DNA from: Candidatus Poriferihabitaceae bacterium
GTDB taxonomy: Bacteria > Pseudomonadota > Gammaproteobacteria > Arenicellales > Poriferihabitantaceae
Length of the DNA: 64,000 bases
NCBI GenBank assembly: GCA_965221795.1
Contig: OZ244914.1
Coordinates: 826,030-890,029, forward strand
Direction of reading: 5' to 3'
Shown here: positions 23,045-40,971 of the stretch, piece after piece
How the letters are laid out: every line of letters starts with the position of its first letter
Position numbering within the stretch: the first letter of the stretch is position 1
Made by a program: the position numbers and the translations under genes
The notes under the pieces: model-generated
The model's database searches: none
Seen by the model: only the letters and a program-made list of their open reading frames with translations
What the model was told of the DNA's origin: nothing

Positions 23045-23533
23045 TCATGACCGCTTCTTGCCCTTTCCGGGCAGGTCGTATAACGGCTGGAGACGAGCCA
23101 ACTCCATTTCGGCATATGGCAAGCGGTACTTCTCACCGTCCACTTCCACCTCTGCTGTTGTCTCATCTGCTGCGACCAACTCTCCAGAAAACCGCCGTCG
23201 ACCCAATATATGGGTCTGCATGAGAATCCGGACACGCTCACCGGCATACCGTTGAAAATGTGCTGGCTTGACCAAGGGCCGGTCCAACCCCGGGGAAGAC
23301 ACCTCCAACGTATAGGCATGTTGAATCGGATCCTCGACATCCAGCACCAAACTGACTTGCCGGCTGACCATTTCACAGTCATCCAGTTCAATCCCCCCCG
23401 GCGCATCAATATATAGCCTGAGCGAACTCTGTCCCGGACCCGTAAATTCCAAGTGGAGCAGTTCATAACCCAAGGCCTCCACCGAAGGCTCCAGGATGGT
23501 TCTCAATCCGGCCAGATTTTGCATTACGAGCAT
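23045..23533 (-). CDS. rimP: ribosome maturation factor RimP
   Basis: LEPSVEALGYELLHLEF N-terminus, 162 aa, directly upstream of nusA. Confidence 0.9.
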   Translation of the reverse strand: MLVMQNLAGLRTILEPSVEALGYELLHLEFTGPGQSSLRLYIDAPGGIELDDCEMVSRQVSLVLDVEDPIQHAYTLEVSSPGLDRPLVKPAHFQRYAGERVRILMQTHILGRRRFSGELVAADETTAEVEVDGEKYRLPYAEMELARLQPLYDLPGKGKKRS

Positions 23534-23657
23534 CTGTCAAAATTATGCCTCGTTTAGAACAAAGCCACAAAAAATGGGCCCATGGCCCATCCAATTCACA
23601 CAGCAAGCACCACCGAAAGTCTTCATCCCGGGAGTGCCAAACCATACCACTTTGCAG

Positions 23658-23683
23658 AAAAACAAAACCCCGCATCAGCGGGG
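23658..23683 (-). terminator. Rho-independent terminator or attenuator inside repeat copy 1
   Basis: On the minus strand: CCCCGC-TGAT-GCGGGG followed by TTTTGTTTTT. Copy 2 has the equivalent at 38089..38114. Confidence 0.6.
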
Positions 23684-23830
23684 TCGCTTTTCAATCCGGT
23701 CAGATTGGTAGCAGGGGCTGGCCACGATGACACCGACCGCTGATCACGGCCCGCGATATAGCCTCTCAACCCGCAACATTAGCCGCGTTACTGCCAACCC
23801 TAGAGGAAGTACGTGACTGTCAGGGCGGAT

Positions 23831-23860
23831 ATTATAACCACTTGGCTCGGCGTTCATCAA
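23831..23860 (-). promoter_or_regulatory. sigma70-like promoter inside repeat copy 1
   Basis: On the minus strand: TTGATG, 18 nt, TATAAT. Directed toward rimP. The same motif occurs in copy 2 at 38262..38291. Confidence 0.5.
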
Positions 23861-24119
23861 GGGGTGGTGTACTGGCACAAGGACCTACGTATGGCATATT
23901 TACCAGCGCCTTCCTGGTTGCTCTTTCCTACAACACCATTCGAGGGGAAATTTGCTGTTAGTCTGCAAGATTTTCCATTAATGTACTTATTGCAAAATTG
24001 AGCAAAAAACTCCGAATAATGGCCATCTGAGATGTCTTTCAGATAATCATCCAGATCAACATCCTTAAGATCTTCCCCACCATCGAAGTCTGGCTGCTTA
24101 ATTTGGTATTCCCCCCTTA

Positions 24120-25667
24120 TTATTCGCTGCTACCAAAGATTTCATCGAATTTGCTCTCGATAGCCAACACTTCTTTGTCAGTAAGTTCCGCAAATTCTTT
24201 TTTGCGAGCGCGTTTTGAGAGTTGGCCGTTATTCTGATGGAGAAAACGAATGAGTAAATCAACCAGCCTATCCGGCATATCGATATAGTGTTTAATAAAG
24301 CCATTGAGCAAATCATATTTCATTAAGTATTCGACTTCTTGCGGCAATGTTTTATTGACCGTCTCTTCCACGCATTCAAAGAAAAATTCGGCCTGTTTGG
24401 TCGCATCAAAATAGCGATAGAGATTTATCGTGTCGTTCAAGACTTCAACATTGCCGTTTTCAGTTGGTCTCCACTCAATCAGTTCAAGTCTGGGTTTGGA
24501 GTAATGCTCCAATGTACGTCTGTAATCATCAATGCGACTCAGGATGATTGCAGAAACTGGAAAAACCAGTCCCCTGGGGACAAAGCCTTTTTCGGCCAAG
24601 ACATGATGAAACAGATAGCGATGTATCCGGCCATTGCCATCTTCAAACGGGTGGATAAAAACAAAACCAAAAGCAATAAGCGTTGCCATAAGAACAGGAT
24701 CATAATCACTATCCGTTAAAAGCTGACTGGTTTCGATTAAACCCGAGAGAAGGCTTTTCAAATCCTCCGCCCGCGCAGAGATATGAACGGGCATCGGCAT
24801 TCCGGTAGTACGGTCATGATCACCCACAAATCCGCCCTCAACGCGAAGGCCAGGCAGGATGAAACGGCTCTCTGCAATGACAATGGATTGCAGATACTCC
24901 AACTCATCCATGCTCAAGGTTCGCTGTCCGGCTTCGCCGATGATCTTTCCCCAGCGCTCAATACGATTATGCGGCGGAGCCTCGCCTTCGATTGTGTAAG
25001 ACGCCCTGGAGTCCTTGAGTAAGAGAAAAGCTGCTGCGCGGCTTAGCAGGTCAGCATGGATTTTTCCAATGTGATCGGCAGCTACCCGCGAGAGACCCAT
25101 AGCGATGAAGCGATCGAGTTTCGCAGTACGACGAATCAGTGGGCAAAAGTCACGAGTGCCCGACAGATTGTTGCGCACACGATGTCGTCTTGAATTTCGT
25201 GATGCTGCCGCATATTGAAGCTTCTCATTGATCAGGGGAACAAAATTCCCGTGAGCAGCATCTTCTAGTTTAAGTGTTGTATCGGTCAGCCACTCATACA
25301 AAAACCAGATACGACGGCTATAACTGCCCGTTGGCATCGCCTTAACAATGTTGACGATTTCTTGCGGATCAATGTCATCAAACAAGGCTTTGAGAATAGC
25401 GAGATCAATGCCTTCATACTTTAAGGCAAAGGTAAGATGGCCTTGCAATGTATCGTCAGGCCTGTGGCGCGGTGTGTATAGCTGCCAGCGCCCCCGCTCA
25501 GCCTTTCTATGCTTCGTTCCTATGGCACAAAGGCTATCCGGCACTGGTACGGCGAGCCTGTGCCCTTCAATCAGTGCGGCATAACCTGCATAGGTCGCAC
25601 CTGACTCCAATGCTTGGAAAGCATGAAAGGTCGTTACACCTCCTGATTTTCGATTATATTGAGCCAT
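24120..25667 (-). CDS. Fic family protein
   Basis: Fic motif HPFEDGNGRIHR. 515 aa with an extended N-terminal region and a C-terminal helical domain. Confidence 0.85.
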   Translation of the reverse strand: MAQYNRKSGGVTTFHAFQALESGATYAGYAALIEGHRLAVPVPDSLCAIGTKHRKAERGRWQLYTPRHRPDDTLQGHLTFALKYEGIDLAILKALFDDIDPQEIVNIVKAMPTGSYSRRIWFLYEWLTDTTLKLEDAAHGNFVPLINEKLQYAAASRNSRRHRVRNNLSGTRDFCPLIRRTAKLDRFIAMGLSRVAADHIGKIHADLLSRAAAFLLLKDSRASYTIEGEAPPHNRIERWGKIIGEAGQRTLSMDELEYLQSIVIAESRFILPGLRVEGGFVGDHDRTTGMPMPVHISARAEDLKSLLSGLIETSQLLTDSDYDPVLMATLIAFGFVFIHPFEDGNGRIHRYLFHHVLAEKGFVPRGLVFPVSAIILSRIDDYRRTLEHYSKPRLELIEWRPTENGNVEVLNDTINLYRYFDATKQAEFFFECVEETVNKTLPQEVEYLMKYDLLNGFIKHYIDMPDRLVDLLIRFLHQNNGQLSKRARKKEFAELTDKEVLAIESKFDEIFGSSE

Positions 25668-26257
25668 TTTTTATAAAATTCGGTTACAAATGATTCTCCT
25701 GTATCATTGCATGAAAAACAATGACTATTCGTGAAAATAATTCAAATAAGGTAGTATTTGTGAAAATTAGTTACCCTGAGGGGGCTTTCTTCAAGAAAAA
25801 TATGGATAGTGATCCATATCGTTCATATTGGCACTTTAAGGAGCTTTTTATAAATCAGGCTGCCATGCCCCAATCATCCAAAATCATCTACTTGCGTCAC
25901 GGCGGGATGTCATGGCTCTATTTTTGAGGTTGCGTGATTTTCATTATTCAACACCGGCCACAAAGCCGTAAAAGTTCACCATGAGTACGCTGAAGAGAAG
26001 CGAACCTTGCTACCAAAAACCATGAGAAAGGCTGCACAGGCGATAGATGATTTTTGGTTGTATGCCGATCAAAACCCACGATTTGTATTTGTAATCGGCT
26101 TGATAACGACCACCGAAATCTCTATTGAACCCCGTTCAAAACATGCGCAATAACCAATTCCCAGCTGTCAATGCTTTTTCATTGACAGGTGTACGGCAGT
26201 AACGTGGTCAAGAACTGCTGGAGTAATCTCAATCTCCGTTAAGAGACCAAGGGTACA

Positions 26258-28633
26258 TCAGACTTCCAGTGTAGATTGAATAAAAAGCTCATCATTATTA
26301 TGTACCAATCGGTACCCCATCGCTGCATACCCCTTGCAGCGACGCTGGAACATGCGCTGCAACATTGGTAATGAGCTGTCGACATAGTCGTAAATCGTCA
26401 CTTTCTTTTTGTTTGCAGCTACTCTATGAATACGTCCTGCGTACTGCACAAGTGAGCCTTTCCAGGAAATGGGCAGTGTTAGGAATAGTGTATCCAGTCT
26501 GGGAAGATCAAAGCCTTCACCAATATACTTGCCAGTCGCAATCAACACTTGCGCAGTTGAGGCTTTTTCCATGACTTGTGCTCTCTCTTTAGCTCGCATT
26601 GCTCCACGTAAAACAAGGGTCTGATATCCCCGGCTGGACAGTGCTTCGCTAAGTAAGCCAGCATGTTCTCGCCGTTCCGTTAACACCAAGGAGCTTCGGC
26701 CAAGTTCAATCTGATCGGCAACATCCTGCACGATTAACCGATTCCTCATATCGGATTCCATCAGCCATCGGTAAACGTCTGCGATTTGCAGCTTCGCCTC
26801 TGAGGCTAATGTTACAGGCGGCCTTCCTGCTACTGGCCTGACGATGACATGCTGCTCAAAATGATCTGTCTTATCGCTTTTAACCCGATGACGGATAGGG
26901 CCTGCCTGCATAAAGATAATCGGATGATGGCCATCCTGCCGTTCCGGTGTGGCGGTTAGGCCGAGAACAAAGCGTGCCCTGACATCGGACAAAAGGCGAT
27001 CATAATTCGGTGCTGATACGTGATGGCACTCGTCGATAATAACCTGACCATAGCTCAGCAGTAATGGATCCACGCTGTTATCCTTTTTGCTCAACAAGCT
27101 TTGGTAGGTAGCAATATCAATACAACCAGTCGGTGTGCGCTTGCCCCCACTAATGGCACCAATGTCGGCACCATCCAGAAAAGCCGATAAGCGTTCCTTC
27201 CATTGATCGAACAGTTGTCGAGTATGAGTCAGTATCAGGGTGTTAGTCTTGCGTTTGGCGATTACACCAATGGCGGTTATCGTTTTTCCAAATGCCGTTG
27301 GCGCATGGAGAATCCCCACATCGTGAGCGAGTAATTTCTTAACCGCATGCTTCTGCTCTCCACGCAGTTCACCCAGAAACCGGATATCTTTCAAGCGCTG
27401 TCCTGCTTCCCGTTTATCATCAATCTCAATCACAATATTCTGCTCAGTGAGTAATTGCCGAATATCATCAAGACACCCACGGGGAACAATTAAGTAGTCC
27501 TGCTCGATGCGAGCCAAGCTGATATAGCGAGGAATGCCGTGGGTACTGAACCGCATCGCTTGTGTTTTAAAGAATACCGGATTAGCAAAACTGGCCTGGT
27601 GTTTCAGGCGGGCCAACAATTTTGATGGCAGAGTGCTGACTGGAATAAACACCTGATTCGCCAGTACGATTTTCAGTCTCACCGGGCAATTCTCGACCTT
27701 TGTGTGGTCGGCAGGAATACCTTGCTCCCAAGGCTTGGCTTCTGTTTCCGGCATTTCCCCTTCGAACTGGTGGAGAAGCCTATGCAGTTTGTCGAGCGCA
27801 AGCCGATTCAGTCTGCTAAGAAACTGCCACTGATCGGTGTAAGCGACTAGATACTGATCAACAAAAACTGAGTTTCCGTATTGACGAGGCTGGCGCTGTA
27901 AAGGTAGCGCGATCAAATTGCCGAAACCACCGCTTGGCACTGAATCCTGATTCGGAAATAAGCGATCATAGGAGTCAAATGACAAGCCTGGATAGCTTTC
28001 CATTGCGCAGCCCAGTAATCCAAATCCCAAGCGCCGCGCATCTCTTGCGGATACCTTGTTTTCAAAGAAAATCCAGATATGTGCGCCATTTCCGGAACGG
28101 GAGCGCTCTATAGCATAGGGAACGTTATGGAATTCACAAGCTTGCGCGAATGCTTTTGCTGCCTGCTGCCAATCCGATTTGTCAAAATCCACCGCCAACA
28201 ACCGACAGGTATCGTCGCGCATGAGCGGATATAGCCCAACTGTCTGGAAGCCGGACAAGTGTTCAAATATGGCTCTGGGTTCCAATGCTTTATAGGCCTT
28301 ATTGGTGCATTCACCGCATTTGATTTTTGGTTTGTTGCATAAACCTGGTCGCCATTCGTTATGGCAGGCCACTGCATAGCCGCTTTTCCCTGTACTGTTT
28401 TCCCACCGGAGGGCGTAGATATCTTCTCTGCCGACAAAGAAATTCTGGAATAGCGAGACTTTCTCGTTGGGTGAAAGTGTAGATGAGGTGGCAATCAAAT
28501 TTGGGGGCGTAGACCCCAACTGAGACTTTCGAGCAAGTAATCGTGATTTTTCTTCTTCCAGTTCCTGAAGCCGTTGATTGATCGATTCGACTTCCTGAAT
28601 GATATGGGATCGATCATCAGTAGCCACAAACAA
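26258..28633 (-). CDS. archaeo-eukaryotic primase (AEP/PrimPol-like) domain fused to an SF2 DEAD/DEAH helicase
   Basis: AEP motifs LLAVDFD, SGNGAHIWIFF and YDRLFP, plus a Cys cluster (CNKPKIKCGECTN). Helicase motifs APTAFGKT, IIDECHH, LGLTATP and YAGRIHR. Confidence 0.75.
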   Translation of the reverse strand: MFVATDDRSHIIQEVESINQRLQELEEEKSRLLARKSQLGSTPPNLIATSSTLSPNEKVSLFQNFFVGREDIYALRWENSTGKSGYAVACHNEWRPGLCNKPKIKCGECTNKAYKALEPRAIFEHLSGFQTVGLYPLMRDDTCRLLAVDFDKSDWQQAAKAFAQACEFHNVPYAIERSRSGNGAHIWIFFENKVSARDARRLGFGLLGCAMESYPGLSFDSYDRLFPNQDSVPSGGFGNLIALPLQRQPRQYGNSVFVDQYLVAYTDQWQFLSRLNRLALDKLHRLLHQFEGEMPETEAKPWEQGIPADHTKVENCPVRLKIVLANQVFIPVSTLPSKLLARLKHQASFANPVFFKTQAMRFSTHGIPRYISLARIEQDYLIVPRGCLDDIRQLLTEQNIVIEIDDKREAGQRLKDIRFLGELRGEQKHAVKKLLAHDVGILHAPTAFGKTITAIGVIAKRKTNTLILTHTRQLFDQWKERLSAFLDGADIGAISGGKRTPTGCIDIATYQSLLSKKDNSVDPLLLSYGQVIIDECHHVSAPNYDRLLSDVRARFVLGLTATPERQDGHHPIIFMQAGPIRHRVKSDKTDHFEQHVIVRPVAGRPPVTLASEAKLQIADVYRWLMESDMRNRLIVQDVADQIELGRSSLVLTERREHAGLLSEALSSRGYQTLVLRGAMRAKERAQVMEKASTAQVLIATGKYIGEGFDLPRLDTLFLTLPISWKGSLVQYAGRIHRVAANKKKVTIYDYVDSSLPMLQRMFQRRCKGYAAMGYRLVHNNDELFIQSTLEV

Positions 28634-29093
28634 ACACCGCTGTCTTCAATAAATGCTCGCCTTCAGAAATGAAGAATAAGTAGCATATTTTATGGAGGAT
28701 AGGGAAAACCTCCACACCGTTATCAGTGCAAGCGTAGGAAATACAGCCAGATTCTACGGGATATTGAAAACCCCCGTTCCAGTTATCGCCCTTGAATACG
28801 GCAAGATCAATATCTTCCAAAAAACGATGCAGCAGGCGATAAGCCTTAGACAGGGATGTTCCACCCTTGAACACAACATCATCGACGTGGACTGATTCAG
28901 ACAGATGTTTCAGTGACTGAGTGACCCAATAACCTTTTTCACCATACACCTGCGGCAAGCCAAAAGTTTCAGCGGCTAGCGGCACAAATTCGGAAAAAAC
29001 CTCATTGTCTTGATATCGATTCAATTGTTTCTTGTAACTCTTGCATCCCTGACGCTCAACGCGCTGTCGACTTTCTTGCAACGAAGAACTCAT
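28617..29093 (-). pseudogene. N-terminal fragment of an AbiEii/AbiGii-family nucleotidyltransferase toxin
   Basis: GEKGYWVTQSLKHL and FKGGTSLSKAYRLLHRFLEDIDLAVF match the AbiEii N-terminus. The sequence then loses family character and stops at about half the usual length. No AbiEi partner is present. Confidence 0.5.
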
Positions 29094-29844
29094 ACCCGTA
29101 GCTTTCCGGGTAGGACTCACGAATCGCAATCTCTTTTCGAACCGAATCGATCACTGACAGGCCAATTTCATCATTCGCATACTTCTTCTCCAAGGCGGAT
29201 AAGCGCTGAACAAGCGGTGAATAGTAGCCGTCCCACCAAGCACTGTCTGGCAACGTAAAATGTTCGAGATGCTGATACCCCGCGTTCTCAATTTCTGCAA
29301 CGATGCTTTCTCGCCCAGCCATTGCCGGATACTCGTCAGAGAAAAAGGTCAAGGCGTCATCTGGCGGGCTATCGGTCAGCCAGACAAGTTCCGTGAACGC
29401 CAAGTAACCACCGCTCTTAAGCAGAGGCTTCCACTTCGATAGCGCGTTGGGAACGCCCATGATGTAGGCCGACCCTTCCGCCCACACGAGGTCAAAACTC
29501 TCCGGTTCGAGCGGCAGATCGTTCATGTCCGCCGGCAACACTTCGATGCGGTTTGCAGTCCCCTGCTCTTCAGCCCGAAACCGAAGTTCGCTTAAGTAAG
29601 GGTCGTGGAAATCGACCGCCGTGATCATTGCATCGGTTTTAATCTCGGCAATGTCGAGCGTTTGCGCGCCTGGACCGCAGCCGATATCCAACACGCGGGG
29701 GCTTGACGGGAGTTCGGTACACAGTTCGAGCGCCTTTTGCGTACTCTTGGCATCGCCGGGGCCCTGCCGCGGCAAATCCGACTGGACTTCAAAGAAAACT
29801 TCCATCATATGCTTATCGGTCTGCGAAGACTCTAGATCACTCAT
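29056..29844 (-). CDS. class I SAM-dependent methyltransferase
   Basis: Motif I VLDIGCGPGAQTLDIA. AGGAG lies 5-6 nt upstream of the ATG at 29844. Confidence 0.8.
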   Translation of the reverse strand: MSDLESSQTDKHMMEVFFEVQSDLPRQGPGDAKSTQKALELCTELPSSPRVLDIGCGPGAQTLDIAEIKTDAMITAVDFHDPYLSELRFRAEEQGTANRIEVLPADMNDLPLEPESFDLVWAEGSAYIMGVPNALSKWKPLLKSGGYLAFTELVWLTDSPPDDALTFFSDEYPAMAGRESIVAEIENAGYQHLEHFTLPDSAWWDGYYSPLVQRLSALEKKYANDEIGLSVIDSVRKEIAIRESYPESYGYEFFVARKSTAR

Positions 29845-31643
29845 GACCTCTCCTGATTGGTTTTCGCTTGCTTGGCATTGAGCACCTGAAGACCGAAAGC
29901 CCGTTCCCTTGAGCGGCGTTCGGCCAATGTCTCTGTGTTTCGACACTCTTCTGCTTCAAGTTTGCGATATCGATCCAGTCGCTTTTCGTCTAGTTGCCCG
30001 TCCGCAATAGGGCGGCGTACCGCATAACCCGGTTCAGTTTCATGCTGGCAGTCGCTAAAACGGCACTGACTAGGGCGTGTTAACGCTACGCAGTGTATCG
30101 ATGACCCGCGCGAAGACGACGAATCCGAGATACATGACATCAAGCTGGTCGAAGCGCGAGAAGACTCGGCGAAAGCCCTTGAGTCGCCGGAACCGGCGCT
30201 CGACCTCGTGGCGCCGCCGGTACCGTTTCCGGTCGTATTCCCAGGGGGTGATGCGACGGCTTTTCGGCGGGACCCCGGGCGTGAAGCCGAGGTCGGCAAC
30301 CGGCCGGCGGGTTTCCTCGTCTTCATCGGCCCGATCCATGACCAGTGCCGGTCGGTGTGACGGCTTCTTCCGCCGCTGCCGGAGCTTCCGCCCCTCCGGG
30401 GCATCGTGCGCGTTGCCGGGAGAGCGCGCGAAGGCAACGGCCGTTCGGGTATCCGCGGCCACCAGAAGAAGCTGGGTGTTGCATCCGCCCCGGGACTTTC
30501 CGATGCCCTGGGCGCCGTTTTTTGTAGCGCCCCCGTGCCCTCGGGATGCCCCTTGATGCGGGTGCTGTCCAGGCCCATGGCCTCCCCCCGGATCCGGATC
30601 ATCCGCTGCCGCTGCCGAGGCTCGAACACGCGGTCCAGAACCCCGTTCTTCGACCACCGGTTGATGCGCGTGTCGATGGTGTGCCCGTTGCCGAAGGGCT
30701 CCGGCAGGCCGCGCCCCTTGCCGCCGTGCTCGGCCACGTCGAGAATGGCGTTGAGTACCGGCAGGGTCGAGAGGCTGACCTTGCCCCGCGGCCTCGGCCG
30801 CAGCGGGGCCATGCGCTCGTACGGTGCCCGTGTCAGTTCCATTGCCGGTTCTTCCGTAATGTTCCGGTTGAAAATCACGGGCACCGAGTATACCATGTCT
30901 GGAAGAGATTGTGTTAACACGCCCTAGCCAGTTCGATTATATCGTCGAAGATTGACTCGATGCCTTCATGCACATCGACTAACTGGAGCTCCCGCATGCC
31001 TGGGGTATCGAGCAGCCACCCGCCAGAGCCTAATCGATACAATGTTCTACTCGTCGTGGTATAGCGACCCTTGTCATCGTCGCTTCTTATACCTCCGTTT
31101 GATCCGTTGCTCCGGTCAGCGTGTTGATGATGGTGGACCTCCCGACCGGACGAACCCATCAGCGTCACACCATGCCAACAGCACCTCCAAAAAACTGGGC
31201 TCCAGTGCATTCACCAATTCGACGAATACACCCGGCCGTACTCCCTCGGCCCGCTGCCTATAATCGCTCGGGACAGCACACTCATCGATCTTCGTCAGAA
31301 CGATCACCGGGATCACACCCGCTTCCTCTGCGAGTACAAGGTAGCGCTCCAGGCGGGCCACATTGAAATCTTGATTGCATGACGTAACGATAAGAGAGCA
31401 TATTGACGTTTGCCGCAATCAGTTGGACCTCTCTGCCTGTCCCCGTCGCACTACCGATTGAACACACTGATTGCGCTCAAGCCGCCGTGAAAAACGCATG
31501 TCATGGCCGAACAGCAATCAATCTCCAACCGTGGCTTGGCCTTCATGCAGTTTTTTATCGACCGGGACTCTGGCGTCACCTGTGACACCGGCAAGGTCGA
31601 GGTGATTGCGATGGACTGCGCTAATACGCATGGCGTTGGACAT
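29841..31643 (-). pseudogene. rsgA: rsgA-like (YjeQ) GTPase gene, inactivated several times
   Basis: Pieces present: VGD(stop)LLF, RLERYLVLAEEAGVIPVIVLTKID, GGWLLDTPGMRELQL and CRFSDCQHETEPG. Lesions: in-frame TGA at 31518..31520, a frameshift near 31116-31210, and an IS insertion at 30074..30923. Confidence 0.7.
30074..30923 (-). mobile_element. IS5-family (IS427-group-like) insertion sequence
   Basis: 12-bp perfect terminal inverted repeats GGGCGTGTTAAC / GTTAACACGCCC, flanked by TA on both sides within CTAG-like context. Transposase lies in two frames: an N-terminal DUF4096-like part and a DDE part (HEVERRFRRLKGFRRVFSRFD). Confidence 0.75.
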
Positions 31644-31744
31644 CTGCAGCTCACCCCCAGATAACTGAGAACGCAAGTGAGAGCCCTATCCGAGCGCTGT
31701 TAGCTTATTTTCGTCAATTCCCATATTAAAATCTACCTAAAATT

Positions 31745-31826
31745 GGTCTATATATAGACCGCAATATCTATAAATGATCCATATATAGATCATTTTCTTG
31801 ACAAGATATGATGAATCGAGTACTTT
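31745..31826 (+). promoter_or_regulatory. hipBA promoter with palindromic operators
   Basis: Perfect 16-bp palindrome GGTCTATATATAGACC (31745..31760). Near-palindrome ATGATCCATATATAGATCAT (31774..31793). Then TTGACA (31798..31803), 17 nt, TACTTT. Confidence 0.5.
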
Positions 31827-31884
31827 GGTTCATAGAAAGATCATAAAGCATTCTTATGGTCTATATACGATACATTTAAGAACG

Positions 31885-32223
31885 ATGCCAAAGTCTATTA
31901 CACGTACCTACTCCCGCTACAGCCGCGATGCAACCGCATTGCTCGCCGGGCTGATCCGTGCAGCGCGAAAGGAACGCCAGTTGACTACTCAGGAGTTAGC
32001 AGACCGCGCTGGCATTTCGAGAGGATTGCTGCAACGCATTGAAAAAGGCGATCTCAAGTGCGAAATTGGTGCTGTTTTCGAAGTGGCCACCATTGTTGGT
32101 GTCAAGCTTTTTGAGGCTGATGAAAGAGCGCTGTCCAAACACCTGAGCCAGACGAAGGATAAACTAGCGCTATTGCCAAAGTCCGTTCGCAAGAAATCGA
32201 AGGCGGTACGCGATGACTTCTAA
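31885..32223 (+). CDS. hipB: HipB-like XRE-family antitoxin
   Basis: HTH QELADRAGISRGLLQRIEKG. Overlaps the hipA start by 11 nt. Confidence 0.75.
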   Translation: MPKSITRTYSRYSRDATALLAGLIRAARKERQLTTQELADRAGISRGLLQRIEKGDLKCEIGAVFEVATIVGVKLFEADERALSKHLSQTKDKLALLPKSVRKKSKAVRDDF

Positions 32224-33472
32224 CAGCGACAAAGAAGCCTTCGTTTGGATTTGGTTGCCGGACGAAACCACGCCAGTGGTTGCCGGACGGCTGGAAGCGG
32301 ACAATGGCAATGTTCTGTTCAACTATGGACAGAGCTATCTGAAGCGCATCGGCGATCAGCCTTCCGCAATTCCGATCTACGAACCCGAGTTGCCGTTACA
32401 AGCCGGAGCGTTGCCGCTACCGGAAGGATTAACTATGCCCAGTAGTATTCGGGACGCTGCCCCCGATGCGTGGGGTCGGCGTGTAATGATTAACAAGAAG
32501 CTCGGTCTCGAGGGCTCTGATACGGACACCGCCGAGCTGGACGAGTTGACCTATCTGCTGGATTCCGGCTCTGATCGGATTGGTGCGCTCGATTTTCAGC
32601 ATTCACCGACCGAGTATGTACCGCGTGTCGCCAACAACGTCAGCATGGAAGAACTGATTGAATCCGCTGGGCGCGTCGAGAAAGGCGTCCCGCTCACGCC
32701 CGAACTGGATCAGGCATTGTTCCACGGCAGCTCCATCGGCGGTGCGCGCCCCAAAGCCCTGATCCAAGATCAGGGCAAAAAGTATGTTGCCAAGTTTTCA
32801 TCCAGCACCGACCTGTACAGCGTTGTAAAGGCCGAATTTATCGCCATGCGGCTGGCACATCTTGCCGGGTTGAATGTCGCGCCTGTAAAGCTGGTCAAGG
32901 CCGCGAAGAAAGACGTGCTGCTGATTGAGCGCTTTGACCGCCAACAAAAAGATGGAGGCTGGTCACGCCGCGCCATGGTCTCGGCACTAACGCTGCTCGG
33001 GCTGGATGGCATGATGGCGCGCTACGCCAGCTATGAAACGCTGGCCGAAACCATTCGCCACCGATTCACCGACCCGAAAGATACCTTGAAAGAGTTATTC
33101 TCACGGCTGGCTTTCAATATTCTGTGCGGCAACACTGACGACCATGCCCGCAATCATGCCGCTTTCTGGAATGGCAATTCACTGACATTGACGCCAGCGT
33201 ATGACATCTGCCCGCAAGGGCGAACAGGCAACGAGGCGTCTCAGGCGATGCTGATATCAGGCAACAACAATATGAGTCAGCTCAAATCCTGTGTTGAAGC
33301 GGCGAATCATTTCCTGCTCTCGGAGGACGATGCCCGAGCAATCTTCGGCCATTTGACCGAATCCATCGAAAAGCATTGGGACTTGGTATGCGAGGAAGCC
33401 GAATTGAGCGAAGTGGACAGGAAACTTTTCTGGGGAAGGCTGTTTCTAAACCCTTATTCGACTGAACAATAA
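32213..33472 (+). CDS. hipA: type II toxin-antitoxin system HipA-family kinase toxin
   Basis: GSDRIGALDF, GSSIGGARPKAL and the catalytic CGNTDDHARNHA motif. 419 aa. Confidence 0.9.
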   Translation: MTSNSDKEAFVWIWLPDETTPVVAGRLEADNGNVLFNYGQSYLKRIGDQPSAIPIYEPELPLQAGALPLPEGLTMPSSIRDAAPDAWGRRVMINKKLGLEGSDTDTAELDELTYLLDSGSDRIGALDFQHSPTEYVPRVANNVSMEELIESAGRVEKGVPLTPELDQALFHGSSIGGARPKALIQDQGKKYVAKFSSSTDLYSVVKAEFIAMRLAHLAGLNVAPVKLVKAAKKDVLLIERFDRQQKDGGWSRRAMVSALTLLGLDGMMARYASYETLAETIRHRFTDPKDTLKELFSRLAFNILCGNTDDHARNHAAFWNGNSLTLTPAYDICPQGRTGNEASQAMLISGNNNMSQLKSCVEAANHFLLSEDDARAIFGHLTESIEKHWDLVCEEAELSEVDRKLFWGRLFLNPYSTEQ

Positions 33473-33698
33473 GCAGCCGCTTTGAAAAGCCCATTGATTC
33501 AAACGACATTAATGGAATTTTTTCCAAGATTGACGATCTTGAACTTGAGGAAACGCCGAAAGTCATGATCGACGTGCGCGTATTTCATCAAAAGCCATTG
33601 CCTCCGGCCTAAACGAAGACAGAATGCCATGCCCATCGGCAAGGCATGGGGACAGTCAACGATCAATGGCAACCGAAAACGCGGCACGGGCATTTTGA

Positions 33699-33840
33699 AC
33701 AATCACCTCTATCGGTGAACTGATCTGGAACCGCCAACGGTTTATCAAAGACCCGGCTACGGGACATCGTGTCCCTCGGTTCAACCCTGAATTCGAATGG
33801 ATACGCCAGAATGTGCCGGATTTGGGTATCCTGATGGACG
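33699..33840 (+). pseudogene. fragment of a large serine recombinase (about 47 codons)
   Basis: IGELIWNRQRFIKDPATGHRVPRFNPEFEWIRQNVPDLGIL matches the conserved 'recombinase' domain segment of large serine recombinases. It has no start and abuts IS21 debris. Confidence 0.45.
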
Positions 33841-34560
33841 GTGACCGGCTTCCACTCGGCGAACTCGTAGGGCTCCCGGGGCAGTGGCTTCCCGGCCGGC
33901 TGGTCAATCGGCTCGAAGAGTTCCCGGCGGGAGCCGGGAGCTTCGGGAACGGCTTGCGGTGGCGCTTCTCCCGCAGCCCCCGGATCTCGGCGTTGACCTC
34001 AGCCAAGGAGCAGAACGGCCGGTTGCGCAGGGACGCGAGGATCCACCGCTCCGCCAGTAGCACACTCCACTCCGCGGGGGCCTGGTCCCGAGGTTTGCCA
34101 ACGCGCGCCGGGACCACGGCCACGGCCACGGAATCGTGGTCCGCCATCTCCGGGTTGATGGGGTGAAGGTCGGGATCGTACCGGTGGGCCTTCGTCACCG
34201 CGGACCGTAGATGGTCCGGCACGACGATCTCGACCACGCCGCCCAGGGTTTCGAAGCCGCGCGGGTGGGACCCGATCCAGTCCTCCAGACCCTGGCTCCT
34301 GATGACGTCGGCATCGGGGTACCCCGATGCCCCCAGCGCTGCGACGAAGACCTGCGCTGCCCGCACCTCCCCGCTCCACCGGTCGAGGATCTCTACCGTC
34401 CTGCCGGCATCATCGACCAAACCGCTTCTCCCCCGCCTGGTGGTCCGGCCGCATCACCCGATCCCGCTTCCCGGCCCCGTGGCGGTCGTGCCGGCAGAAC
34501 CCGGAGGACTCGGTTCCTCCAGAGTGCGGTTCCCGGGATTCCTACCCGAGCAGGAGCCGG
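33840..34560 (-). pseudogene. IS21-family IstA transposase fragment, frameshifted
   Basis: HQAGEKRF, VFVAALGASGY, HPRGFETLGGVVEIVVPD and RYDPDLHPINPEMADH follow the IstA core, spread over two frames. A further IS-end-like hairpin lies at about 34565-34650. Confidence 0.6.
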
Positions 34561-34819
34561 GTTACACCCTTGTGGCCTCCGAGTCGGACGGTGTCCCACC
34601 GCGGGTGCTTGCGACCCCCTGAAACAGACTTTTCAGGGTCGACTCGGTAACCTCACGCTAGAATGGATCGTCATCGCCAGCGCCAGACAATTCGTCGAAA
34701 TATGCGAGATTCATCTTCTCTTCGAAGAACTTCTTTGCAGTCATGTTCTTGTAAGCAATCCGGTCTTTTCCGACGTTCAGCATTGCAGCAATACGCGACC
34801 GTCCATCTTCGATACGACC

Positions 34820-35746
34820 TTACACAAGGTCTGGCTTGTCTTCAAAAATTGGAGCCACGACTAAGACTTTGAGGTACTCGCTACGCGTAATGGCCTGTCC
34901 AATAAGACGGTTCACATAGTCGTCGCTGAAACTATAGCCAATAACGACAATAAACCGCAGCGCCTCATTCAATGAGTATTTACGAAGCTCATGCACGTAG
35001 AATAGGTAAGGATCAATTGAACTCAATTTCGCGGCAGTACCGAAAATCAGTTCAGGGTTTGGCTGCGGGTTGTCGCATAACGTCAGTACGCCGCGATTAG
35101 TCTTGTCTCTGATCCAGTCTATAGAGCCATGCAGCTTGTAAAGATACACTTCAACATCTGCATTCTCATTGGTATCGAATTTTGACGCTTCCCACTCTCG
35201 GTCGCTGTTGAACCCCAATTCAATACTAAAATCCGTACCAGCGAGGGCTTTCTCGACGCAGATATCGTAGTTGAGCGTAAAAACGCGCACTGCGCTCCCA
35301 GGATCAGATACTAAATCTCTAAATCCGCGAAAATAGTTCGACCTGTCATAGTTGCTGATATTTATCCATTGAAAGAGTTGTGAGCGTATTTTCTTGTCCA
35401 GTTTGGCGACCATCTCAAACTCTTCCCCGGCTACTTTTAGAAGATGGATGTTCCAGCCGCCTATAAAAGGATACAGCTTGTTCTGATGCTTCTGGTTTAT
35501 CTCTGATAGCACGTCTAACAGCTCTTCAATAGTAGCGGTCTGCTCTTCGAATGCGCCCTCAAGTCCTCTCTGATAGATAATCGAGCTTTTTAGGTAGTTA
35601 TACAGTTCGTAAAACTCTTTGAAATCTGTGTCAGATCGTATCTTCTCTTCGATATCAAGCGTCATTGCCTTTGCGTGCTTGATCCCTGCATCCACGCTGG
35701 CTCCGGCCCCTAGAAGAAACAATAACGAATCTTCTCTTAAACTCAT
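34820..35746 (-). CDS. stand-alone SIR2-family (SIR2_2-like) protein, predicted NAD+-consuming effector
   Basis: LLGAGASVDAGI (NAD-binding loop), FTLNYD, LYKLHGSIDW (catalytic His) and VVIGYSFSD. AAGGAG SD. Only 13 nt downstream of the Argonaute stop. No APAZ-like extension. Confidence 0.85.
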   Translation of the reverse strand: MSLREDSLLFLLGAGASVDAGIKHAKAMTLDIEEKIRSDTDFKEFYELYNYLKSSIIYQRGLEGAFEEQTATIEELLDVLSEINQKHQNKLYPFIGGWNIHLLKVAGEEFEMVAKLDKKIRSQLFQWINISNYDRSNYFRGFRDLVSDPGSAVRVFTLNYDICVEKALAGTDFSIELGFNSDREWEASKFDTNENADVEVYLYKLHGSIDWIRDKTNRGVLTLCDNPQPNPELIFGTAAKLSSIDPYLFYVHELRKYSLNEALRFIVVIGYSFSDDYVNRLIGQAITRSEYLKVLVVAPIFEDKPDLV

Positions 35747-35759
35747 TTTGTTCTCCTTT

Positions 35760-37658
35760 CTACAAGAACCATGGCGCTAATGACTTAGCGCTCACGATGT
35801 TCATGTCGTTAACGTTTTCAAGATGCGAAAACTCCCTCATGAATTTCGCAATAAGCCTTGAATACAGGATCGAAATTGGCTGGGCTTTAGAATTGAACCC
35901 GCGCCAATTAGCGCCTGTCAGATTCAAGATATCCTGAAGACACTCCTTCTTTGTTGCCCATTCCTCTTGTGACTTAATAAAGTCCACGTACAATGGCTCC
36001 GAGACTCGCTTGTGCAGCACCTCTTTTCCGTATTGCAATCCTTCGGCCCATATCAAAAACTCGTTTTTTGATATCTGAACATACGTGCTCTCATAAGGAA
36101 CGCAGGTATTGTGATCGCTAAATCCAAGGAATTTGTGCTTGGTATTTACCCGTATGACGATGACCTCGAACTCGTCCGCTTTTCTGATTTCCGAAACGAC
36201 CGCTTTGATAACTTCGATCTCTTTTCGGCTGATTTTGTAGGGTAGATGCAAAACGAGCGATTTGTAGTGGTCACCAAGCTCGCTTTGCAAAACTTCCTTT
36301 AGATTAGTTTGCAGGCTACCTAGATAGGTTTCTTCGTTGTTCGATGACGAGAGAGGCTTAGTGTATTTGAAGTCGCCACTGGAATCTAAACAAACCGTAT
36401 ACGCGGTATATCTTGTCATATTGCCTTGAACTCTTTCCTGCACACTCCCCAACCCAAAAATCAGGCAGTTGCTTTTGGCAGGCTGTACTAGCCAAGGTGC
36501 GCCTCCAAGCTTGCTAAATATCTGCAACCCAATATTGGATACAGACCATTTCAATTGATCCTTTTTAAAGAAAGTGTCTTCAGTGACAACCTGACAATAT
36601 GCATCGTTTCTCAATGCCATTAGCTTTAGATGGCCGTAGGCGTCGTAAGCTGCTTCTACGCCCTTGAAGCCTTTCGGAAGGACTGCTACGAGCATCACCT
36701 TGCTATTCATGTGGGATGCCTTGAACTGCTGTACACGACCTTCGATAGCTTCTATTGCGTCTGCGTCAAACATGCTTACTAGATGATGCTCAACGATGTC
36801 TTTGTGAATTGGTACAGAGAACATCTTCTCTAAGCCAGAGAACTGACCCGGAAACAACTTGCCAACTAGTCCAAGATAGATATCTCTCGCTAACGACCGC
36901 GTTCTCTCGGTGAAAAGAAAGAGATACCTAACATCGTCATCCATGCGACGGTACGGCCCGTTGGCCCTAATTCCCATGAACTGCGACTTGGCTGTTTGTC
37001 CACCACCAACTAGATAGGTCTTTACATCAAGCTTTTTGGCGGGCAGAGAAGAAAATTCGCTGATAGCAAGGCCGGAATTCGAAAGTAACGGTGAGAGCAC
37101 GTCCTTGGTGAAGTTCTCAAGGGTCGATTTCTTGTCCTTGTAGAAATAGATGTTTGGTTTTCCAGACTTATCGAGAGAGAAGCTTCGGATTTGCGTCTGC
37201 CTGTTAAACGGCTGATCGTCTTTGAGGGAGAACTTGTGTTCAATGAGAAGCCCAAATTGCCTTTTTCCCTTTAGGAAATAAGGCTTGACAATTAGCTCAG
37301 TATTTCCTTCGCCGAACTTCTCTGTAACAAAGCGAACCTCCTTCAGCGTAATGGCCTTCTCAGGAATGTAGTAATCAAGTTCTCCAGCTTCGATCGTTTT
37401 CAGAAAGTCTTGGTATATGAGATGCACTGTCAGAACAGGATTCTGAGAATACTCGAACTGGTACGCTTCGTAACCGTCTCGCTCGACGGTAGATACATCA
37501 AACAACACCCATTCCTCATCACCCTCTTGCGCGGGCAAATTGGCGCGAAAATCCTCGTCCTTCTTAGCAAGAGAACTGTCATGGACACGGATTCGATACA
37601 CTGTTACGCTATTGTCTTGTTTGAGCAGAGGAACAAAGTTCAATGCGATGCTATCCAT
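35760..37658 (-). CDS. prokaryotic Argonaute (MID-PIWI with a ~240-aa N-terminal region), catalytically inactive
   Basis: PIWI hallmarks: NIGLQIFSKLGGAPWLV (KLGGAPW at 36492..36512), NWRGF...PISILYSRLIAKF, and C-terminal APWFL. Catalytic positions are replaced (IFGLGS, LHLPYK). MID Y-K..Q..K pattern (AYGHLK...CQVV...SKLGG). Start is ATG 37658, with GGAGG 8 nt upstream, or 37664. Confidence 0.85.
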   Translation of the reverse strand: MDSIALNFVPLLKQDNSVTVYRIRVHDSSLAKKDEDFRANLPAQEGDEEWVLFDVSTVERDGYEAYQFEYSQNPVLTVHLIYQDFLKTIEAGELDYYIPEKAITLKEVRFVTEKFGEGNTELIVKPYFLKGKRQFGLLIEHKFSLKDDQPFNRQTQIRSFSLDKSGKPNIYFYKDKKSTLENFTKDVLSPLLSNSGLAISEFSSLPAKKLDVKTYLVGGGQTAKSQFMGIRANGPYRRMDDDVRYLFLFTERTRSLARDIYLGLVGKLFPGQFSGLEKMFSVPIHKDIVEHHLVSMFDADAIEAIEGRVQQFKASHMNSKVMLVAVLPKGFKGVEAAYDAYGHLKLMALRNDAYCQVVTEDTFFKKDQLKWSVSNIGLQIFSKLGGAPWLVQPAKSNCLIFGLGSVQERVQGNMTRYTAYTVCLDSSGDFKYTKPLSSSNNEETYLGSLQTNLKEVLQSELGDHYKSLVLHLPYKISRKEIEVIKAVVSEIRKADEFEVIVIRVNTKHKFLGFSDHNTCVPYESTYVQISKNEFLIWAEGLQYGKEVLHKRVSEPLYVDFIKSQEEWATKKECLQDILNLTGANWRGFNSKAQPISILYSRLIAKFMREFSHLENVNDMNIVSAKSLAPWFL

Positions 37659-38003
37659 GTGCATGTCCTCCGTTTCGGCTGCTCGTCAAGTCTTCCAGAA
37701 ATTCGGAAGGTACTTCACCGCTGGTTACCAACAGACGATCTCTAGCCCTCGTAAATGCCACATACAGCAAATGTCGTTCGGTGTCGTAGACTTCTTCCAA
37801 ATCAGCGTTGTCGGCTACTCCTTCTATCCGCTCTTGTGAGGGAATGATTTCATCGTCGCACGCCATGACCACGATCGCTTTGAACTCCAACCCCTTAACC
37901 AAGTGCATCGTGCACAATGCCGCGCTTCTGTGCGCCAAGTAGCTATCCAGTAGCTCGTATGGAATATCGGCTCTTTCTAGCACCGCTTTTGCGCGATCTA
38001 ATT
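37651..38003 (-). pseudogene. C-terminal fragment of a UvrD/Rep-type SF1 helicase
   Basis: TMHLVKGLEFKAIVVM and LLYVAFTRARDRLLV are SF1 motifs V and VI. The 5' end is cut at the edge of repeat copy 2. Its stop overlaps the Argonaute start (ATGGATAG). Confidence 0.7.
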
Positions 38004-38295
38004 GGGGCCCATGGCCCATCCAATTCACACAGCTAGCACTTACCGAAAGTCTTCATCCCGGGAGCGCCAAACCATACAACTTTTCCAGAAAAACAAAACC
38101 CCGCATCAGCGGGGTCGCTTTTCAATCCGGTCAGATTGGTAGCAGGGGCTGGCCACGATGACACAAACCGCTGATCACGGCCCGCGATATAGCCTCTCAA
38201 CCCGCACCATGAGCCGCATTACTGCCAACCCTAGAGGAAGTGCGCGACTGTCAGGGCGGATATTATAACCACTTGACCCGGCGTTCATCAAGGGG
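38004..38295 (-). repeat. copy 2 of the ~290-bp direct repeat
   Basis: Aligns with 23576..23864. Contains the same TTGATG-18-TATAAT (38262..38291), the CTGCTACCA segment and the terminator (38089..38114). A G10 tract follows. Confidence 0.85.
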
Positions 38296-39058
38296 GGGGG
38301 GCGGAGCAGACCGACGGTTGGGTTCGGTTGCCGGGCGAAGGGATGGCGGGGCAGGAGTGGAGGTGCCCGTAGGTGCGGGCGGACCGGCAGGCCGGAGGGA
38401 CGCGGTACCGATGCCGGCGGCGTCGGGTCCAGAAGCCGAACGGGCGCGGGGGGCGTCCTGCTGGACGGGGCCATATCCCGGATCGAGTGGACCTTGCGGA
38501 GCGGCCTTCGGTGGTGGCCGAGAAGAGCTGGATCGGCGATTGGGAGCGGGAACCGATCCTTGGCGCGAGACCCCGGGGGAGCGGGTATCAGCAGCGGATC
38601 GGGGCTCGAAGTTCCGGTTCCTGGAGTGGGTGGAGGGCCAGACCGCGGCTGCGGTGACCGCGACGCTCACCCGGCGTCCGGGTCCAGTCCGGGACCGGGT
38701 CCACACCGGCACGGCAGATAACGGCAAGGAGTTCGCGAGGCATCGGGAGATCGCACAGAAGCTTGATGCGGGCTTTTACTTTGCCACCCCCTACCCTTCC
38801 TGGGAACGGGGCCGGAACGAGCACCCCCATGGCCGGGTGCGCGAGTACTTCCCGAAGGGCACCGACTGCCGCCAGGTGCCCCCGACACTCCGGGCCCTCC
38901 GGTGATCCACCGGAGCGGCCACTCGACCTCCAAGTTCCGAACTCGCCTTTGCCTTGGCCGATGGCTTCGCTCAGGATCACCGGCCGTCGAGATGGGTGCC
39001 ATCTGAGGTCGAAAAAAAGGCGTTCGCAGCGCGGGTGCACTTCGGACTGGCCCCGGGG
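38296..39058 (+). pseudogene. IS30-family element remnant (5'-truncated, frameshifted)
   Basis: Transposase pieces (ADRQAGGTRYRCRRRR, DRGSKFRFLEWVEGQTAAAV, TADNGKEFARHREIAQKLDAGFYFATPYPSWERGRNEH) lie in several frames. A terminal IR sits near 39030-39058. Confidence 0.6.
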
Positions 39059-39141
39059 CCAGAATACAGGAAAAGTCATGCTGGATTGATTCGGCTCAAC
39101 ACCCCTGCTTCCTTTCCAAACAGCGTGGGCAACAACAGCCG

Positions 39142-39761: not shown

Positions 39762-39831
39762 TGCTGTCTCCAATGTCGAATGATGTTCGAGCAATTATAT
39801 CCCAATTTCGTGCAGAATGAGGTGATTTTCA

Positions 39832-40917: not shown

Positions 40918-40971
40918 AAAATAACCTTTGTATAGTCCATAAAACATCTATATGTGATTTATTATAGAGCA

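Follow-up and report, generated by a model that had tools for sequence, protein, structure and literature searches.

Two direct repeats in the 64,000-nt stretch of DNA analysed here (the window) are integration scars that carry an outward promoter, and neither a decayed tRNA nor a demonstrated new small-RNA gene. Each copy is likely to be a composite fossil, in which the right end of a mobilizable element that inserted at metY, the tRNA-fMet gene, is joined to the native metY terminator and rimP leader; this judgement covers the history and present function proposed below as well as the structure.

Composite structure of the repeats

The copies (23576-23867 and 38005-38298, both on the minus strand) lie in the same orientation, ~14,430 bp apart from start to start. 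Compared by blastn, MAFFT and a repeat search of the window, they are 94.2% identical across 294 aligned columns (94-95% overall; blastn E=3.5e-127), in keeping with the original prediction of two ~290-bp repeats sharing about nine-tenths of their positions. Each repeat consists of two joined parts: a module of ~165 bp, which is the right arm of the element including a 13-nt tRNA 3' end (the att core), and ~125 bp of metY terminator and rimP leader. Mismatches are evenly spread (about nine in the 165-bp module part, seven to eight in the 125-bp leader part), so that the two parts have diverged to an equal degree, and the terminator and leader DNA of copy 2 is 94% identical to that of copy 1.

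The att core, a displaced tRNA-fMet 3' end, reads GCCCCTGCTACCA in both copies (23706-23718 and 38137-38149, minus strand), against GCCCCCGCTACCA in the tRNA-fMet itself (45255-45243). Searching for the core gave four matches versus 0.33 expected by chance, and the 13-nt 3' end is present at the tRNA and at both modules. The tRNA (45243-45319, minus strand) is of the genuine initiator type, as had been supposed: ARAGORN calls it Met-CAT, Rfam scores it at 61.8 bits, and inspection reveals a U1xU72 mismatch and a GGG/CCC anticodon stem. This tRNA gene was the attachment site in the ancestor and today stands 21.7 kb away from rimP. The native metY terminator, which forms the first rimP-leader hairpin, comprises a CCCCGC/GCGGGG stem and the T-run TTTTGTTTTT (23656-23685, minus strand, with a twin in copy 2 at 38087-38116). 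The original prediction had already pointed to this hairpin, to the near-perfect tRNA end and to the recurrence of TTTTGTTTTT directly after the tRNA-fMet, all of which were recovered. A second leader hairpin, GGGCCATGGGCCC followed by a T-run, lies at 23569-23588 (minus strand) and gives a weak, sub-threshold match to the Rfam rimP leader (RF01770); in copy 2 (38005-38017) its stem is retained and the T-run is replaced by a helicase fragment.

The surroundings of the copies differ. On its 3' side, copy 1 runs on into the native leader and rimP (23045-23533, minus strand), the first gene of rimP-nusA-infB, and this continuation matches the ancestral leader of two relatives (L002 and L006). Copy 2 adjoins a truncated IS30-family fragment on its 5' side and is fused on its 3' side into a truncated UvrD/GajB-like gene, stopping at the stem of hairpin 2 within a gene fragment whose stop codon overlaps the pAgo start. 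Since the final ~125 bp of each repeat are native host DNA, the repeat is no simple att duplication. The earlier suggestion of att-type scars is borne out and can be made more precise: the doubled tRNA 3' end, the existence of island-free relatives and the recurrence of the module at the tips of related elements, where homology ends at ACCA, agree with it.

The element family and its cargo

Island-free alleles come from related genomes, the species itself being on record as one contig. Comparison with relatives lacking the island, which had been proposed at the outset, yields the order cysS-tRNA-fMet-terminator-hairpin 2-rimP in L004, L005 and L006, with the same terminator hairpin after the intact tRNA. 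Copy 1 occupies exactly the metY site of these genomes, bearing out its predicted metY-like placement before rimP. By position, the 125 bp at the 3' end of each repeat are homologous to the metY-rimP intergenic region of the relatives. In two other genomes, the tRNA lies 9.7 kb (L002) and 6.3 kb (L003) upstream of rimP, and the module takes its place beside the leader.

The ~165-bp module was found by nhmmer at thirteen independent loci, in one copy each; two copies occur in the window only. At 12 of these loci, ACCA marks the precise end of homology, with unrelated flanks beyond, while in L003 the core itself has diverged. At the opposite end, a mobC homologue begins 15-18 nt upstream of the -35 hexamer in eight of the 13 loci (L002, L021, L025-L029 and L031), the five homologues compared being 45-78% identical. 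Less-decayed copies are adjoined by divergent mobC and relaxase genes, the relaxase being present beside the module in L021, L022, L025, L027, L028 and L031. A large serine recombinase lies at the far, tRNA side, immediately next to the tRNA in L002 and after the core in L022; its reading frame crosses the att core in L002, L022 and L028, and the frame in the L024 contig does not match. At attP-like junctions (L022, L024 and L028), a strong element-borne terminator lies within ~10 nt after the core, and in integrated copies the host metY terminator stands in its place. L031 represents an intact element at rimP, with a cargo of pAgo, SIR2, ArdA, a type I restriction-modification system and GmrSD; its pAgo, paired with SIR2, is 78% identical to that of the window. 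In L023 and L031, the module is directly upstream of rimP and ~70-75% identical to that of the window, versus ~44% for RimP, which indicates that the module is mobile and not vertically inherited.

The predicted defence island between the copies is present as a 14.1-kb mosaic of defence and toxin genes (23868-38004). It contains a Fic-domain PDC-S24 candidate (24120-25667), a TOTE AEP-helicase (26258-28633), an AbiEii fragment (28617-29129), a methyltransferase (29056-29946), an IS4/5-like fragment (29841-30920), HipBA (31798-33472), an IS21 fragment (33656-34420), Aga_SIR2 (34820-35746), a class II pAgo (35760-37664) and the UvrD/GajB-like C-terminal fragment (37651-38028). A remnant of a large serine recombinase (33585-33839, plus strand) encodes 86 aa, shares 44% identity with residues 205-290 of the recombinase in L002 and is ended by the IS21 fragment. 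No intact recombinase exists in the 21.7-kb insert, and neither mobC nor relaxase nor ArdA is detectable in the window by tblastn. With the machinery gone, the repeats are left as scars rather than functional sites. Older inserted DNA fills the interval from copy 2 to the tRNA (38299-45242); it is made up of IS30-family fragments (38299-39100, 39835-40913 and 42675-43395), another HipBA (40954-42562), the 5' remnant of a Fic gene (42599-42674) and an IS5 transposase (43368-44723). HipBA (77%), the 5' end of Fic (82%) and a 73-bp piece (82%) occur in both halves of the insert but are not colinear there, which points to a history of several steps. No recombinase remnant is seen at the tRNA-proximal junction (45242), and the left end of the original element is therefore unrecognisable.

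Outward promoter and module body

Both copies carry the sigma-70-type promoter noted earlier, TTGATG-18-TATAAT, which matches 10 of 12 consensus positions. It lies at 23831-23860 in copy 1 (minus strand, predicted start near 23824) and at 38262-38291 in copy 2 (minus strand), where the hexamers are identical and the spacer has two substitutions. On the minus strand, no sigma-70-like site other than the copy 1 promoter occurs in the 300 bp upstream of rimP. A strong intrinsic terminator separates this promoter from rimP; read-through is assumed, as it is for the ancestral metY promoter. The motif TTGnnn-18-TAnAAT, with its invariant 18-nt spacer, occurs in 11 of the 12 tabulated members of the module family and, by inspection, in L031, and the distance from the -10 hexamer to ACCA is fixed at 125-127 nt. 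The hexamers have a conservation of 0.88-0.90, compared with 0.58 for the spacer and 0.56-0.62 for the flanks, and they are kept in the window copies and in L003 despite decay of the remainder. With the metY promoter 21.7 kb distant, copy 1 holds the only recognisable promoter before rimP-nusA-infB, and, to judge from its sequence, the conserved outward promoter probably now drives these genes.

The module body (23719-23830 in copy 1 and 38150-38261 in copy 2, minus strand) corresponds in intact elements to the antisense strand of a small, conserved reading frame that lies immediately before mobC and was called as a gene five times, with a 59-86-aa protein. This frame has no stop codon in all eight tabulated members with mobC or relaxase, one in L002 and L003, four in copy 1 and three in copy 2, and its pairwise differences by codon position number 121/106/197. 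Conservation of the body is thus better explained by the opposite-strand reading frame than by an RNA.

It is conceivable, though rather doubtful, that the module is instead a functional sRNA gene of ~165-180 nt, complete with promoter and terminator, the repeats being two copies of it. The transcript would be a cis-antisense regulator of the pre-mobC frame and of recombinase read-through in intact elements, and a retained regulator in the window. Such a gene would suit the fact that 11 of 12 members keep the hexamers, the 18-nt spacer and the spacing of 125-127 nt to the core, and that the promoter outlives the dead opposite-strand frame in relics; and because the core is followed by either the element-borne or the host metY terminator, a discrete RNA would form in both states. 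However, an Rfam search of the module returned no family match, the single-sequence fold reaches a z of only -1.9, and the consensus structure of 12 homologues is weak (-11.4 kcal/mol, covariation term -0.38, compensatory changes in 5 of 24 pairs). Moreover, the third-codon-position excess on the other strand explains much of the conservation of the body, one member (L028/L029) is missing the promoter, and there is no known target.

Doubling of the junction and comparison with known systems

Comparison of the relatives shows that the order was ancestrally cysS-metY-terminator-leader-rimP and that an element inserted after metY and left its right arm before the leader. The recombinase, mobC and relaxase subsequently disappeared, and insertion sequences moved in. 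The whole 290-bp junction, including the host leader, would have come to be doubled, and, as the repeat holds host leader and ends in a truncated helicase gene, this duplication was not made by site-specific integration. Its likeliest route may be the import of the metY-rimP island of a related strain, one end being fixed through homology within the module, leader or rimP and the other joined illegitimately inside the UvrD-like gene upstream of pAgo. Any duplication model must explain the 5' breakpoint common to both copies, which lies at the mobC ribosome-binding site. Copy 1 would now supply the promoter for rimP-nusA-infB, and the corresponding promoter and leader of copy 2 would be directed at the operon of truncated helicase, pAgo and SIR2.

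There is a modest chance that the copies were instead generated locally, through unequal crossing-over or replication slippage at the resident junction, with the 14 kb of cargo inserted later. Their shared orientation and identical 5' and 3' limits, the IS30, IS21, IS5 and IS4/5 fragments throughout the region and the other segments common to both halves of the insert are what such an event might leave, but the even 5-6% divergence speaks for two separately diverged lineages or for an event of great age. Where copy 2 meets the truncated helicase of the pAgo operon, the junction resembles one illegitimate join rather than an insertion in a spacer separating tandem copies, and the presence of pAgo-SIR2 as cargo of the intact family element at rimP in L031 favours its arrival as part of an element. 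That the repeats are live attL and attR of an island excisable by a site-specific recombinase is very improbable: they are direct repeats around horizontally acquired DNA beside a tRNA-derived core, but the insert retains only the recombinase remnant, the repeat reaches 125 bp into the host leader and stops at a gene truncation, and element ends and target in the module family share the 13-nt core only. The window repeats are not active att sites, and deletion of the island between them is possible in principle by general homologous recombination only. The least credible reading, a decayed metY paralogue duplicated with the island, which the original prediction had also raised, draws on the metY position and near-perfect tRNA 3' end of the module but fails because every insert-bearing genome examined has an intact tRNA elsewhere, the 109-111-nt module body has no tRNA similarity (z -0.3 to 1.1 versus shuffles, with no likeness past the last 16 nt in four versions), and ARAGORN and the Rfam tRNA model are silent even at E<=10.

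As composite scars, the repeats are best compared with the attL/attR repeats that flank islands and integrative mobilizable elements inserting in tRNA gene 3' ends. As in those systems, the tRNA 3' end is doubled at the ends of the insert, relatives hold the island-free allele, the cargo consists of defence and toxin genes, and several elements have accreted at one hotspot; in the module family, too, the recombinase lies at one end, opposite mobC, the relaxase and probably oriT. However, the repeat in the window is 290 bp long, as it includes a 150-bp element arm and 125 bp of host leader, and the family uses a large serine recombinase, whereas tRNA-targeted islands usually have a tyrosine integrase. 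SXT/R391 elements in prfC reportedly give the disrupted host gene a new promoter and 5' end; similarly, an outward promoter carried to the junction by an element can maintain expression of an essential host gene downstream. Here, in contrast, the upstream tRNA gene and its promoter are replaced and no coding sequence, and promoter activity is predicted from the motif. The gammaproteobacterial metY-rimP-nusA-infB leader (RF01770) shares the metY-rimP position and two terminator-like hairpins, but the Rfam scores obtained are far below threshold (18.2 and 15.6 bits versus a gathering score of 47), and hairpin 2 of copy 2 lacks its T-run and precedes a defence operon and not rimP. In Tn916, read-through into the transfer genes occurs across the joined ends of the circular form, in Tn4451 a joint promoter serves TnpX, and in mycobacteriophages immunity depends on integration through an attP inside a gene. 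The module family resembles these systems in that both a small conserved frame and, antisense to it, a promoter-terminator unit extend across attP; since the recombinase frame crosses the core as well, integration would swap the 3' ends of all three. It differs from them in being convergent, the outward promoter being predicted to lie antisense to the recombinase and the small frame.

The repeat pair and its att core

The two direct repeats claimed in the original prediction are real. Copy 1 (23576-23867, minus strand) and copy 2 (38005-38298, minus strand), recovered by blastn (E=3.5e-127), pairwise alignment and repeat search (families D5 and D12), are 94.2% identical over 294 aligned columns. 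Each contains the features originally listed, namely TTGATG-18-TATAAT, a body (~110 nt long), GCCCCTGCTACCA and a GC-rich hairpin followed by TTTTGTTTTT, as well as a second hairpin, GGGCCATGGGCCC, ~75 nt past the first hairpin and its TTTTGTTTTT. Annotation of the DNA between the copies bears out the defence island and shows it to be a mosaic of defence and toxin genes: it encodes a Fic-domain PDC-S24 candidate, a TOTE AEP-helicase, an AbiEii fragment, a methyltransferase, HipBA, a class II pAgo with Aga_SIR2 and a UvrD/GajB-like C-terminal fragment, and also holds IS fragments.

Among the readings proposed for the repeats, that of att-type scars is right, as the tRNA 3' end is repeated, island-free relatives exist and homologous ends elsewhere stop at the core. 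The sequence GCCCC[C/T]GCTACCA occurs at 45243-45255, 38137-38149 and 23706-23718, the 3' end of the target gene thus being repeated across the insert, and in the related locus L002 the end of the tRNA is identical to that of the module over 13 nt. The homology of the ~165-bp module (outward promoter, body and core) stops exactly after ...GCCCCCGCTACCA in 12 of the 13 loci that carry it; in L003, the att core itself has diverged to GCCCCTGTCAACA. The modules of L021-L029 and L031 end at ACCA and are followed by unrelated sequence. Beyond the core lie an unrelated terminator (L021, L025), a rimP leader (L023, L031) or, on the opposite strand, the 3' end of a serine-recombinase gene (L022, L024 and, as a remnant, L028 and L029). 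A symmetric attB of the serine-integrase kind would imply a crossover in the middle of the T-loop, which can be dismissed: CCAGCC, the element type, is retained in integrated copies and CCTGCC in the tRNA, and the exchange must therefore fall within the 13-nt identity.

Homologues of RimP put the window within or close to Candidatus Poriferihabitaceae, gammaproteobacteria associated with sponges. Comparison with island-free relatives revealed the uninterrupted target site in L004, L005 and L006, where cysS is followed by tRNA-fMet, a terminator hairpin with TTTTGTTTTT, a second hairpin with a T-run, and rimP. Because of this order, the terminator and second hairpin of the window repeat represent the native metY terminator and rimP leader, and the 3' part of the repeat is, by position, clearly homologous to the region between metY and rimP in the relatives. 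The Rfam rimP leader (RF01770, gathering score 47) matches the window copy at 18.2 bits (E=1.9), across both hairpins, and L023 at 15.6 bits, below the gathering score; the weak match fits the 3' part of the repeat being a native leader. In L002 and L003 the tRNA lies 9.7 kb and 6.3 kb upstream of rimP, and the module takes its place beside the leader. L023 also contains a long near-perfect palindrome (L023:1058-1142) between the rimP leader and rimP, probably a REP-like element, which gives spurious Rfam matches to microRNA families.

As proposed, 45243-45319 encodes a genuine initiator tRNA, and the suggestion that the repeats are a decayed paralogue of it has to be abandoned, since ARAGORN, Rfam and shuffle-controlled alignment are all negative beyond the last 16 nt. 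In the window, ARAGORN detects only a tRNA-Asn and the tRNA-Met at 45243, with no cloverleaf in the repeats, and RF00005 does not match the repeats at its gathering score or at E<=10. Local alignments of four module bodies with the tRNA-fMet body give z values of -0.3 to 1.1 against 500 shuffles. The match is confined to the last 13-16 nt (14/16 agreements over the last 16), and what resembles a tRNA 3' end represents the att core, not a decayed tRNA, which removes a false lead. The window initiator tRNA has U1 opposite U72; that of E. coli has a C1xA72 mismatch. In contrast to the ancestral arrangement in L004-L006, TTTTGTTTTT directly follows the window tRNA without a separate terminator hairpin.

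An element family marked by the module

A dispersed repeat of the REP or MITE type would be present in many copies at unrelated positions, whereas the module occurs twice in the 64-kb window and once per related locus. An exact 20-mer of the module has no match in the genome and metagenome contig collections, a degenerate pattern has none in viral contigs, and blastn and tblastn searches of plasmid records returned nothing. The degenerate pattern, built from the modules of the window, L002 and L003, yielded five further copies in metagenomes, every one at the same kind of junction; L026-L029 and L031 were added by protein search and context look-ups. In a profile search over 492 kb, the module was found once per locus in the 13 independent loci, and twice in the window only.

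The module lies beside mobilization genes. A mobC homologue starts 15-18 nt upstream of the -35 hexamer in 8/13 loci (L002, L021, L025, L026, L027, L028, L029 and L031), and the five MobC proteins compared share 45-78% identity. A relaxase gene adjoins the module in L021, L022, L025, L027, L028 and L031; relaxase and mobC together near a presumed oriT, the combination that marks an IME, are thus found in L021, L025, L027, L028 and L031. The opposite end of the L002 insert, next to the tRNA, encodes a large serine recombinase of 486 aa, the gene for which is intact there and partial in L022. The fullest example is L031 (ERZ26859023 ctg15371_159x_c, a 4.3-Mb chromosome), where L031:1-15100 holds an apparently intact family element at rimP, the left end (tRNA and recombinase) being outside the sequence compared. 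Its cargo comprises type I restriction-modification, GmrSD, pAgo (78% identical to that of the window), SIR2, ArdA and acetyltransferase genes, followed by relaxase, mobC, module and rimP, which would make it a good experimental or comparative reference for the family. RimP of L023 and L031 is ~44% identical to that of the window and their modules are ~70-75% identical, and the module therefore moves horizontally. These sequence comparisons identify the module as the right end of a mobile element, and a 165-bp module ending GCCCCCGCTACCA can be annotated as such.

Inserts between metY and rimP measure 21.7 kb in the window, 6-10 kb in three relatives (from tRNA or module to rimP) and >14 kb in L031. 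The gap is an insertion hotspot, in which mobilizable elements accumulate and decay into a defence island, and the cargo that travels with the family includes pAgo-SIR2, restriction-modification, GmrSD, RHS and ArdA genes. The window pAgo (35760-37664, 634 aa, PADLOC pAgo_II 646 bits), with Aga_SIR2 downstream (34820-35746), has many homologues of 65-82% identity in marine gammaproteobacterial contigs in varied contexts, such as beside restriction-modification genes (L031, L032) or near a contig end (L030).

Reading frames, RNA and promoter of the module

The body is the antisense strand of a conserved frame, VAGAGCQRYLPL(V/I)TA(F/Y)DIASKP...ALLS.LEG(A/V)R. This small frame contains no stop in 8/8 tabulated members carrying mobC or relaxase, one stop each in L002 and L003, and 3-4 in the window copies. 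In the intact members read (L021-L023 and L025; L031 by inspection), the stop codon of the frame and the start of mobC overlap. Differences between members fall mainly at third codon positions (121/106/197), and the frame appears five times among gene-caller predictions, as a protein of 59-86 aa. Serine-recombinase frames (L022:2057-3039, L002:70-1530 and L028:225-485) show no stop before the att core. After integration they continue into the tRNA (tail ...VAGAGFEPTTFGL), and in attP-like junctions they lead into the small frame, being in phase through the core in L002, L022 and L028 and out of agreement in L024. As the frame is open through the core and has different continuations, integration would change the C-terminus of the protein. 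That the small frame always forms the recombinase C-terminus is contradicted by L024 and stays conjectural; the protein database contains no long recombinase with the small-frame tail.

The third reading offered for the repeats, an uncharacterised sRNA gene, may apply but is not needed for explaining conservation of the module. Rfam searches of the window copy and L023 returned only sub-threshold matches to the rimP leader and irrelevant hairpin matches, and no known RNA family. The RNAalifold consensus energy weakens as sequences are added, from -32.7 (four, terminator included) to -14.9 (nine) and -11.4 kcal/mol (12), and with 12 homologues the covariation term is -0.38, with compensatory changes in 5/24 pairs. 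An inverted repeat around the GGCTCCCTCTA block covaries, which a DNA hairpin explains equally well. The conserved block GTGCGGGCTCCC agrees with the MOBQ oriT core GTGCGCCCTCCC at 10/12 positions (consensus quoted in PMC3832669). The block also lies within the reverse-strand small frame, and the relaxase has a weak score for the MobA(P) type; as a putative oriT core, it is only a lead.

The outward promoter, TTGnnn-18-TAnAAT, is present in 11/12 tabulated members, plus L031 by inspection, always with an 18-nt spacer and with 125-127 nt from the -10 to ACCA, and conservation is 0.88-0.90 in the hexamers and 0.56-0.62 in the spacer and flanks. A working sigma-70 promoter is expected to vary at the third position of the -10, which is variable among the module promoters. 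The window copies and L003 have lost mobC, and their opposite frame is dead, but they retain an intact promoter, which suggests selection in the host context. In copy 1 it is the sole consensus promoter on the rimP strand within 300 bp of rimP, and would replace the displaced metY promoter for rimP-nusA-infB. Copy 2 aims the same promoter and leader unit at a helicase fragment, the stop of which overlaps the pAgo start.

Relics, duplication and a possible life cycle

In the window, tblastn with five MobC proteins, four relaxases and ArdA found nothing, and the serine recombinase is reduced to an 86-aa remnant (33585-33839); the window copies are therefore relics, not functional sites. Judged by its extent, the 290-bp repeat was not made by integration, because a second integration would duplicate only module and core and copy 2 adds 125 bp of host terminator and leader. 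The leader part is as diverged between the copies as the module part. On the 3' side, copy 2 stops within a truncated gene, at the hairpin 2 stem; its 5' neighbour is an IS30-family fragment, also truncated. Most economically, the island of a related strain would have been imported, with homology anchoring one end and an illegitimate join forming the other; the main alternative is an old duplication in place. A simple recent tandem duplication of the whole island fails, as the shared segments are 94, 77, 82 and 82% identical and non-colinear; on this comparison, the segments of 77-82% identity show that the region went through several steps.

Further repeated sequences occur in the window and in related inserts. 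HipBA cassettes at 31798-33472 and 40954-42562 are 77% identical and occupy different halves of the metY-rimP insert; L003 has a third homologue (L003:7400-9002) in its insert at this locus. The second HipA is directly followed by a remnant of the Fic gene start and upstream region (42599-42674), 82% identical to 25632-25708, and related Fic cassettes were therefore once present in both halves. An IS30-family IS is represented by one full copy (12058-13566) and by truncated, rearranged fragments of 76-90% identity (38299-39100, 39835-40913 and 42675-43395), one of which forms the 5' boundary of copy 2; relatives occur in L002 (6981-8322). This 1.35-kb repeat could be mistaken for an unknown element, as the ORF on one strand has no Pfam match, but NCBIfam finds an IS30-family transposase on the other. 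A further pair of direct repeats (5996-6350 and 13958-14312; ~355 bp, 95% identical, high G+C, coding-like) brackets a low-G+C segment of ~8 kb that lies downstream of tRNA-Asn (5285-5360) and may delimit another island with duplicated ends.

A tentative reading, on balance doubtful as a whole, is that these loci carry an undescribed mobilizable element that targets tRNA-fMet and has its att site in a convergent gene pair. One strand would carry the serine-recombinase frame and the conserved 60-86-aa frame coupled to mobC, and the other a promoter-to-terminator unit giving a ~170-nt RNA. On integration, both 3' ends would be exchanged with the tRNA gene and its terminator, which might let the element read its own state (circular or integrated) and give the host a replacement promoter for rimP-nusA-infB. 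In the sponge symbiont, the promoter would have outlived the element and been co-opted twice, for rimP and ahead of the pAgo-SIR2 operon. A literature search found no described serine-recombinase IME targeting tRNA-fMet; given this, and the lack of matches in plasmid records and viral contigs, the family, whose att site is crossed by a reading frame and, on the opposite strand, by a promoter-terminator unit, appears not to have been described. Where an element splits an essential operon headed by a tRNA gene, it may bring a replacement promoter, and this promoter may stay under selection after the death of the element.
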